NCBI RefSeq assembly: GCF_030013205.1
Contig: NZ_CP122648.1
Length of the DNA stretch: 64,000 nt
Direction: 5' to 3' (one strand)
Source of the DNA: Escherichia coli
GTDB lineage: Bacteria; Pseudomonadota; Gammaproteobacteria; Enterobacterales; Enterobacteriaceae
Positions within the stretch are counted from its first letter, which is position 1. The number at the start of each line of letters is the position of its first letter. Below are positions 9,001 through 12,000 of this stretch, in pieces. The position numbers are program-made.

Positions 9001-12000
9001 CCCAGTCACCGGAGCGACCATACAGCCCTTCCATCATCATTTCAGCCAGAATGTACGGCACGTTGTCGGCCTGAAGAACGCGTTTATGAGTCAGCGGATT
9101 CACACCACCCGCCGCCAGCGTCGCGCCAAGCGTTGCCAGTTCAACAGTATTGATGAGCGTGGAGCACTGACGGGTGTACACGTCACAGGCTTCCATTGCA
9201 TCACAATAGAGATATCCGGCGGAGTACAGCAGCCAGGCAATGGCCCGGTTATGGAAGTTGGTTGTTTGTTCCGACTGGTTGACTTCGTCAGAGAGCGCTA
9301 CCTGCTCACCAGCCAGTTGTTGTTGGATATGTAAAATTCGCTGCCAGCGTTGTTCGGCATTTTCAGCGTTAATCAGGCTGGTGGTGGCAATAGCGCCAGC
9401 ATTTACCAGTGGCGACAGCGGTTTGCCGCCATGCAACTCTAAGGCGATAACTGAGTTAAAGGGCAATCCGGTCGGGTCAGCGCCAACTTTGTCCTGTACC
9501 GCCTGCGGGCCGACATCTTCTAACGCAAGGGCTAACGTACAGACTTTCGAGATGGATTCCAGCGCAAAGCGGTAATCACTATCACCCGCGCGATATATGT
9601 TGCCATCGCAGGTCACAATAGCCACTGCTGCCAGTTGACCAGGTACATTCGCCAGAAAGGGAATGTAGTCGGCATTTTGTCCGCCGTTAAGTGAGTGAAA
9701 TTGGGTGTAAGCCTGATCCACTGCCTGCTGTAATTTGTTTGCATCTAACATCTTTTGTTAACTCCTTTTTATAGATGCGGGAGGTAATTCCTCACCCCGG
9801 TGCCGATTTTCAGGCATCCTGATTTAACTTAGCACCCGCAACTTAACTACAGGAAAACAAAGAGATAAATGTCTAATCCTGATGCAAATCGAGCCGATTT
9901 TTTAATCTTTACGGACTTTTACCCGCCTGGTTTATTAATTTCTTGACCTTCCCCTTGCTGGAAGGTTTAACCTTTATCACAGCCAGTCAAAACTGTCTTA
10001 AAAGGAGTGTTTTATGTCACAAACTATCGACCTGACCCTGGACGGCCTGTCCTGCGGTCACTGCGTTAAACGCGTGAAAGAAAGTCTCGAACAGCGCCCG
10101 GATGTTGAGCAGGCGGATGTGTCTGTCACTGAAGCGCACGTTACCGGGACTGCCAGTGCAGAACAGCTGATCGAAACCATCAAACAAGCGGGTTATGACG
10201 CATCTGTAAGCCACCCAAAGGCTAAACCGCTGGCGGAGTCATCAATCCCGTCGGAAGCACTGACAGCGGTTTCTGAGGCGCTTCCGGCAGCGACCGCCGA
10301 TGACGATGACAGCCAGCAGTTGCTGCTGAGCGGCATGAGCTGCGCCAGCTGTGTCACCCGCGTACAAAATGCGCTGCAAAGCGTACCGGGCGTCACTCAG
10401 GCACGGGTAAACCTGGCGGAGCGTACTGCGCTGGTGATGGGCAGTGCCTCCCCACAAGATTTAGTGCAGGCGGTGGAAAAAGCGGGCTACGGCGCGGAAG
10501 CGATTGAAGATGACGCTAAACGCCGCGAGCGCCAGCAAGAAACCGCCGTCGCTACGATGAAGCGCTTCCGCTGGCAGGCGATTGTCGCACTGGCGGTGGG
10601 TATACCGGTGATGGTCTGGGGGATGATCGGCGATAACATGATGGTCACCGCCGACAACCGCAGCCTGTGGTTGGTTATCGGCCTGATAACCCTGGCGGTA
10701 ATGGTTTTCGCCGGCGGGCATTTTTACCGCAGCGCATGGAAAAGCCTGCTGAACGGTGCAGCGACGATGGATACGCTGGTGGCGCTGGGTACTGGCGTGG
10801 CGTGGCTCTATTCGATGAGCGTCAACCTGTGGCCGCAGTGGTTCCCGATGGAAGCGCGACATCTTTATTACGAAGCCAGCGCGATGATTATCGGTCTGAT
10901 CAATCTCGGTCATATGCTGGAAGCGCGCGCACGTCAGCGTTCTTCAAAGGCGCTGGAGAAATTACTCGATTTAACCCCACCGACGGCGCGCCTGGTCACC
11001 GACGAAGGTGAAAAAAACGTGCCGCTGGCAGATGTTCAGCCAGGTATGTTACTGCGCCTGACGACCGGCGACCGTGTGCCGGTAGATGGTGAGATTACCC
11101 AGGGCGAAGCGTGGCTGGATGAAGCGATGCTGACGGGCGAACCTATCCCGCAGCAAAAAGGCGAAGGCGATAGCGTCCATGCCGGGACAGTGGTACAGGA
11201 CGGCAGTGTGCTGTTTCGTGCCAGTGCGGTCGGCAGCCATACTACGCTGTCACGGATCATTCGCATGGTGCGACAGGCCCAGAGCAGCAAGCCAGAAATA
11301 GGTCAACTGGCGGATAAAATCTCCGCCGTGTTTGTGCCGGTAGTGGTAGTCATTGCGCTGATCAGTGCGGCAATCTGGTATTTCTTTGGTCCGGCACCGC
11401 AGATTGTCTATACCCTGGTGATTGCCACCACGGTGCTGATTATCGCCTGTCCGTGTGCGCTGGGACTGGCGACGCCGATGTCGATTATTTCGGGCGTCGG
11501 GCGGGCGGCTGAGTTTGGTGTGCTGGTGCGGGACGCCGACGCGCTGCAACGCGCCAGTACGCTCGACACCGTGGTGTTCGATAAAACCGGGACGCTGACC
11601 GAAGGGAAGCCGCAGGTTGTCGCAGTAAAAACATTTGCTGATGTTGATGAAGCGCAAGCATTGCGTCTGGCGGCGGCGCTGGAGCAAGGTTCCAGCCACC
11701 CGCTGGCACGGGCGATCCTCGATAAAGCAGGTGATATGCAGCTACCGCAGGTCAACGGTTTCCGCACATTGCGCGGGCTGGGTGTGAGCGGTGAAGCTGA
11801 AGGTCATGCGGTATTGCTGGGCAATCAGGCGCTGTTAAATGACCAGCAAGTTGATACTAAAACGATTGAGGCAGATATTTCAGCTCAGGCATCGCAAGGG
11901 GCAACGCCTGTGCTGCTGGCGGTTGACGGGAAAGCGGTGGCCTTGCTGGCAGTACGCGATCCGTTGCGTAGTGATAGCGTGGCGGCGCTGCAACGTCTGC

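Follow-up and report, generated by a model that had tools for sequence, protein, structure and literature searches.

The locus described here raises the question of which promoter drives the copper-exporter gene copA of an Escherichia coli strain, and from where its regulator CueR is supplied. The window, i.e. the whole stretch of 64,000 nucleotides that was analysed (contig NZ_CP122648.1), had been described in a preliminary way as carrying a divergent glsA/copA control region with a CueR-type promoter of the MerR family, and as lacking the cueR gene itself. The region is almost certainly PcopA, the copA promoter native to E. coli, together with its CueR operator. Both are already known as a textbook element, and the genomic context in which they stand is likewise known.

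The genes and the gap that separates them are the following:

7524 to 8816, minus strand: ybaT, APC-family permease gene, 3' of glsA (ORF, annotation and match to an amino-acid transporter subfamily)
8819 to 9751, minus strand: glsA (ybaS), glutaminase A, 310 aa, ATG at 9751, divergent from copA, annotation in agreement
9752 to 10013, no strand: glsA–copA divergent intergenic region, 262 bp, 40% GC, with ORF starts at 9751 (minus) and 10014 (plus)
10014 to 12518, plus strand: copA, Cu(I)-exporting P-type ATPase, 834 aa, ATG at 10014

The limits given previously for the divergent region, 9752-10013, coincide exactly with the ORF bounds. The product of copA was assigned to the CopA equivalog NCBIfam NF007952 with 1747 bits (cutoff 1316), which identifies the gene downstream of the promoter as a copper-homeostasis gene, and that of glsA to NCBIfam NF009020 with 562 bits (cutoff 395). 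The RefSeq annotation of matching genomes gives the same identities for both genes, and for annotation purposes the window is anchored as the E. coli copA locus. The search of positions 9500-10500 against Rfam at E ≤ 1 returned no RNA family.

The elements of the copA promoter, in the copA-proximal part of the gap, are listed below:

9943 to 9948, plus strand: -35 hexamer TTGACC, read from the sequence and the same in K-12 PcopA
9946 to 9966, no strand: CueR operator ACCTTCC-N7-GGAAGGT, a 7-7-7 inverted repeat with its core CCTTCC-N7-GGAAGG at 9947-9965
9949 to 9967, plus strand: spacer TTCCCCTTGCTGGAAGGTT, counted as 19 bp, 2 bp over the 17-bp sigma-70 optimum
9968 to 9973, plus strand: -10 hexamer TAACCT, read from the sequence
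9979 to 9981, plus strand: predicted copA transcription start, 6-8 nt past the -10, from promoter geometry
10002 to 10007, plus strand: copA Shine-Dalgarno sequence AAGGAG, 6 nt 5' of the ATG

The arms of the dyad are CCTTCC (9947-9952) and GGAAGG (9960-9965), separated by the N7 CCTTGCT (9953-9959), and form an exact inverted repeat within the copA promoter. The left arm overlaps the -35 hexamer by 2 bp if a 6-bp arm is considered, or by 3 bp with the 7-bp arm, and 2 bp separate the end of the right arm of the core box (9965) from the start of the -10 (9968). This register, with a 3-bp overlap on the -35 and 2 bp to the -10, is the published PcopA geometry. The 19-bp spacer of the preliminary description was borne out by counting from TTGACC to TAACCT, an overlong spacing, and the dyad that it reported is present and exact, but its placement strictly between the -35 and the -10 has to be corrected, as the left arm overlaps the -35.

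A single copy of the exact dyad is present in the 64 kb of the window, where 100 shuffles give an expectation of 0.00. When up to two mismatches were allowed, five sites were found against 1.83 expected, and the four additional ones (22296, 26312, 41342 and 60561), being at chance level, were rejected as CueR sites. The standard sigma-70 scan of positions 9600-10200, with spacers of 16-18 nt, detected no promoter, including no canonical glsA promoter; for the copA promoter this is the expected outcome, given its 19-bp spacer and its dependence on an activator.

The alignment of the gap with that of E. coli K-12 MG1655 showed both to be identical, save for one extra A in the A-run just 5' of the Shine-Dalgarno sequence. 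Of 5426 complete E. coli genomes, 5422 have the gap at ≥95% identity and 3101 at ≥99%. As the gap is the K-12 sequence, it is the PcopA/CueR operator that has been characterised by experiment and by structure. Compared with K-12 PcopA, the -35, spacer, -10, dyad register and downstream gene are the same, and the sole difference is the genomic context, as cueR lies 27,281 bp from copA instead of 2,614 bp. The PcopA/CueR system is among the best-characterised metal-responsive promoters and is in common use in copper and gold biosensors. The K-12 promoter and its CueR operator were reportedly studied by Outten (2000) and Stoyanov (2001), and structures of this system are given in PMC8169799 and in PDB entries 4wlw, 4wls, 6ldi and 6xh7.

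In the cryo-EM study of CueR and sigma-70 RNA polymerase on PcopA (-40 to +14), this promoter is described with the core box CCTTCC-N7-GGAAGG, a 19-bp spacer, a 3-bp overlap of repeat and -35, and 2 bp from the box to the -10 (PMC8169799). According to the same study, the hexamers reach the canonical distance of ~55 Å through bending and under-twisting of the spacer by CueR, polymerase binding to PcopA is poor without CueR, and a 1-bp shift of the CueR box weakens or abolishes activation (PMC8169799). The CueR signal has been given as ACCTTCCC-(5)-TGGAAGGT, in promoters with 19-bp spacers (PMC1526738). CueR has zeptomolar affinity for Cu(I) and also controls cueO, which is at a separate locus (PMC8169799, PMC1526738). 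Activation dependent on both CueR and copper was shown for the identical K-12 sequence (PMC8169799), and by virtue of this identity copA of the present strain is presumably copper-responsive as well. The assignment of the region to the MerR/CueR type thus holds, the gap being the K-12 PcopA of the CueR cryo-EM and in vitro work. With the metal promoters of the MerR family (MerR, ZntR, CadR, HmrR) it has in common a suboptimal spacer of 19-20 bp, an operator palindrome inside the spacer and activation by DNA distortion; in contrast to the MerR, ZntR and CadR promoters, the half-site CCTTCC/GGAAGG is CueR/HmrR-specific, and the target is a Cu(I) ATPase instead of mer, znt or cad genes.

The recurrence of this architecture in other species was assessed with the pattern TTGACCTTCC-N7-GGAAGGTNTA, which has 20 fixed bases, in species-representative genomes with a stated total of 298 billion bases. 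The pattern was found in at least 120 stretches of DNA (122 matches listed), against about 0.5 expected by our own calculation. Among the 122 matches listed, 43 are directly 5' of a CopA homologue, 40 are directly 5' of a MerR-type gene, largely in Clostridia, and 39 have neither as the first downstream gene. The sixth base of the -10, free in the pattern, is T in 102 of the 122 matches listed, against a T background of 22%, which argues independently that the -10 at this 19-bp spacing is genuine. A comparison of 19 loci that encode close homologues of CopA, almost all of them from Enterobacterales, showed diverging flanks but conservation of the free N7 (mostly CCTTGNT), of the C 5' of the -35 and of the remaining -10 positions. 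Because the scan required the dyad, the cross-species pattern has to be read as recurrence and gene association, not as unbiased conservation.

The same core promoter and operator are present in the enterobacterial cueR–copA divergon of Enterobacter, Kluyvera, Yersinia, Photorhabdus, Superficieibacter and others, in which the cueR match starts 9-11 bp 5' of the copA -35, on the opposite strand. Unlike in that divergon, cueR and copA of Escherichia are separated by glsA and ybaT, and here by the adhesin island too. In Clostridia (Faecalibacterium, Oscillospiraceae, Lachnospiraceae), the pattern stands directly 5' of a MerR-type gene whose product is 28-44% identical to CueR. This arrangement suggests autoregulated CueR-like regulators outside Proteobacteria, with a putative operator identical at all 20 fixed bases.

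To locate the regulator gene, CueR was compared by tblastn with the window; neither cueR nor a hidden or paralogous MerR-type gene was found (best E-value 0.92), in agreement with the previously reported absence of cueR from this DNA. Its position was read from three genomes that carry the island, E. coli O139:H1 P15-25 (NZ_CP080233.1), ST2747 and O157:H7 Sakai. Positions 1-13154 of the window differ from P15-25 by one mismatch in 13,154 nt. The gene order in P15-25 is copA, glsA, ybaT, a TolC-family gene, a giant SiiEA/BapA-like adhesin gene, a type I secretion ABC gene, an HlyD-family adaptor gene and cueR, and ST2747 and Sakai have the same layout, with cueR beyond the island. The distance from the copA ATG to the cueR ATG, the measurement by which the earlier proposal was to be checked, is 27,281 bp in the near-identical P15-25, and likewise in ST2747 and Sakai, against 2,614 bp in K-12, so that cueR would start about 17.3 kb past the left edge of the window. 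The presumed location of cueR beyond the adhesin island is therefore right in all three genomes, and the term "displaced", also used for it, is valid for the geometry and not for the history of the locus.

The CueR protein of P15-25 belongs to the equivalog NF007590 (308 bits) and differs from that of K-12 in one residue, at position 103 (N, instead of D in K-12). C112, C120 and S77 are kept, and the protein matches the CueR chains of PDB entries 1q05, 4wlw, 6ldi and 6xh7. A cognate cueR was thus identified through the genomes of P15-25, ST2747 and Sakai. Since CueR acts in trans, the distance of its gene should not affect function, and CueR acting from 27 kb off is what is expected of a trans-acting factor.

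The island, of which the following genes are within the window, is a block of 24,666 bp relative to K-12:

5831 to 7186, minus strand: TolC gene of the island
from 5722 downwards: 5' part of the giant adhesin gene, within the island

Its boundary on the ybaT side is at 7495/7496, 28 bp past the ybaT stop and within an inverted repeat just after this stop codon; the island fills positions 1-7495 and runs on past the left edge of the window. Of the 5426 complete E. coli genomes, 943 carry the island or at least its left part. O-island 28 of EHEC O157:H7 comprises tolC28, rtxA28, rtxB28, hlyB28 and hlyD28 (PMC12758282), and the order of TolC, giant adhesin(s), ABC and HlyD genes between ybaT and cueR is the same in Sakai and in the genomes that match the window; in the latter, the annotation treats the adhesin gene as a pseudogene, either frameshifted or split.

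In K-12, the 96 bp 5' of cueR can be aligned to the 3'-terminal 96 bp of the hlyD-type gene (6898-6993 in the K-12 stretch and 30326-30421 in the P15-25 stretch). The K-12 remnant still encodes ...VLEYLLKPFNKAQEALRER and the island strain ...VLDYLLKPFNKAQEALRER, each followed by a stop, and a single deletion 5' of this part breaks the frame. Since the match to the HlyD type I profile TIGR01843 reaches the C-terminal residue of the intact hlyD-type protein, the 96 bp are genuine coding sequence. As K-12 has kept this 3' remnant of the hlyD-type gene, its short copA–cueR distance looks like the result of a deletion: the compact layout of K-12 appears to be secondary, and within E. coli the long distance is probably the earlier arrangement. 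The mildly new point is that the K-12 layout is apparently a deletion product and not the ancestral site of island insertion. In island strains, cueR and the secretion genes may share a transcript.

A further element was detected 5' of the copA promoter:

9908 to 9922, minus strand: CpxR-type box GTAAA-N5-GTAAA, exact, ~21 bp 5' of the -35

It is the only exact match to GTAAA-N5-GTAAA in the window, where 0.09 were expected. The CpxR motif was defined in this form in a study in which copA was among the CpxRA-responsive genes picked by motif matches (PMC9600279), and CpxR is reported as a regulator of copA, the transcript of which is lower in cpxA and cpxR deletion mutants (PMC11005409). In the copA loci compared, conservation of the box did not extend to E. 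albertii or to other genera. Binding of CpxR at 9908-9922 is predicted from the motif.

On the other side of the gap, GadW, GadX and RpoS were placed at the ybaS promoter by ChIP-exo (PMC4918353), and ybaST is copper-inducible, yet "not directly associated" with CueR (PMC10903455; see also PMC9628877). With these regulators at the glsA side and ybaST not associated with CueR, the region is therefore regarded as two separately controlled promoters, divergent in geometry. The glsA-proximal half of the gap contains an 8-bp direct repeat, ATCCTGAT, at 9816-9823 and 9876-9883, 60 bp apart. It was considered as a GadX/GadW element and set aside, as the occurrence of an 8-mer twice in ~160 bp is not improbable by chance; it could be fortuitous or part of the region bound by GadX/GadW.

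Alternatives to this arrangement concern the activity of the promoter, its direction and the supply of CueR. That dyad and long-spacer promoter are in this strain the relic of a promoter no longer active, or a palindrome that arose by chance, would fit with the fact that a standard sigma-70 scan gives no promoter when the activator is left out of account, but no exact dyads are expected by chance, the sequence is that of the functional K-12 promoter, the gap is kept in all but four of the complete E. coli genomes, the same architecture stands 5' of copA homologues in many genera and cueR is intact in near-identical genomes; this possibility is practically negligible. The dyad might otherwise be a shared bidirectional operator, responsible as well for the copper induction of glsA-ybaT, which is divergent from copA and is reported with increased expression under copper stress and with acid and copper phenotypes common to ybaST and cueR mutants (PMC9628877, PMC10903455). 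Nevertheless, the centre of the dyad is ~205 bp 5' of the glsA ATG, activation of the MerR type remodels one -35/-10 pair and none faces glsA around the dyad, and ChIP-exo assigns the ybaS promoter to GadW, GadX and RpoS (PMC4918353), so that control of glsA by CueR through the copA dyad was judged very unlikely.

The distance of cueR could also be functional, if cueR were the last gene of the adhesin operon and the dosage of CueR, and with it the behaviour of PcopA, differed from those of K-12. In P15-25, and likewise in ST2747 and Sakai, the start codon of cueR and the stop codon of the hlyD-type gene overlap in an ATGA, and the OI-28 operon is under regulation of its own by RstA (PMC12758282). 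Against this, K-12 has the same 96 bp 5' of cueR, and a cueR-proximal promoter within them, if any, would consequently be common to both layouts; moreover, given the zeptomolar Cu(I) affinity of CueR and its action in trans on the unlinked cueO (PMC8169799, PMC1526738), modest changes of CueR dosage are unlikely to alter the switch qualitatively. A functional effect of the distance is accordingly held to be unlikely. The related proposal that cueR is coupled translationally or transcriptionally to an OI-28-type adhesin operon through the ATGA overlap, the K-12 layout being the scar of an uncoupling deletion, is put forward as a long shot; if true, copper-sensor dosage and adhesin export would be co-regulated.

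The native PcopA with its CueR operator, the preferred reading, to which no observation ran counter, would work as follows, on the model of the published K-12 work. A CueR dimer would occupy the dyad within the 19-bp spacer. In the absence of Cu(I), transcription of copA would be low, because for sigma-70 RNA polymerase the -35 and -10 hexamers are too distant from each other and not in phase. Binding of Cu(I), Ag(I) or Au(I) to CueR would bend and under-twist the spacer and realign the hexamers, and an auxiliary contact between CueR and the sigma-70 non-conserved region would help the activation of copA, the gene of the Cu(I) efflux ATPase. The CueR acting in trans would come from a gene 27.3 kb away, behind the OI-28-type island with its type I secretion adhesin genes. 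The CpxR box 5' of the promoter probably adds an envelope-stress input, and the left part of the gap carries a separate promoter for glsA-ybaT, within the acid-resistance regulon (GadX, GadW, RpoS). Judged by its sequence, the copper switch would be intact in a strain with an OI-28-type island. The distance to cueR, the compact K-12 layout as an apparent deletion derivative and the CpxR box go beyond the preliminary description.

Other observations were made in and around copA. Codons 68-69 of copA (10214-10220) contain the slippery heptamer C CCA AAG, at which a -1 shift leads to Gly and then TAA, with a 70-aa product. This product is the CopA(Z) chaperone, which is known to arise by programmed frameshifting; in the K-12 annotation CopA(Z) is a joined CDS with the product name "soluble Cu(+) chaperone". 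Downstream of copA, positions 12519-12874 hold ~356 bp of unrelated sequence where K-12 has ybaQ and repeat elements, between ybaP and copA. The DNA-binding regulator gene ybaQ, compared with K-12, is absent from this interval, and the K-12 repeat elements of the ybaP–copA interval match positions 19484-19581 instead. By coordinate homology with K-12, the ChiX small RNA gene is expected at about 13739-13822, on the minus strand, between ybaP and ybaK.
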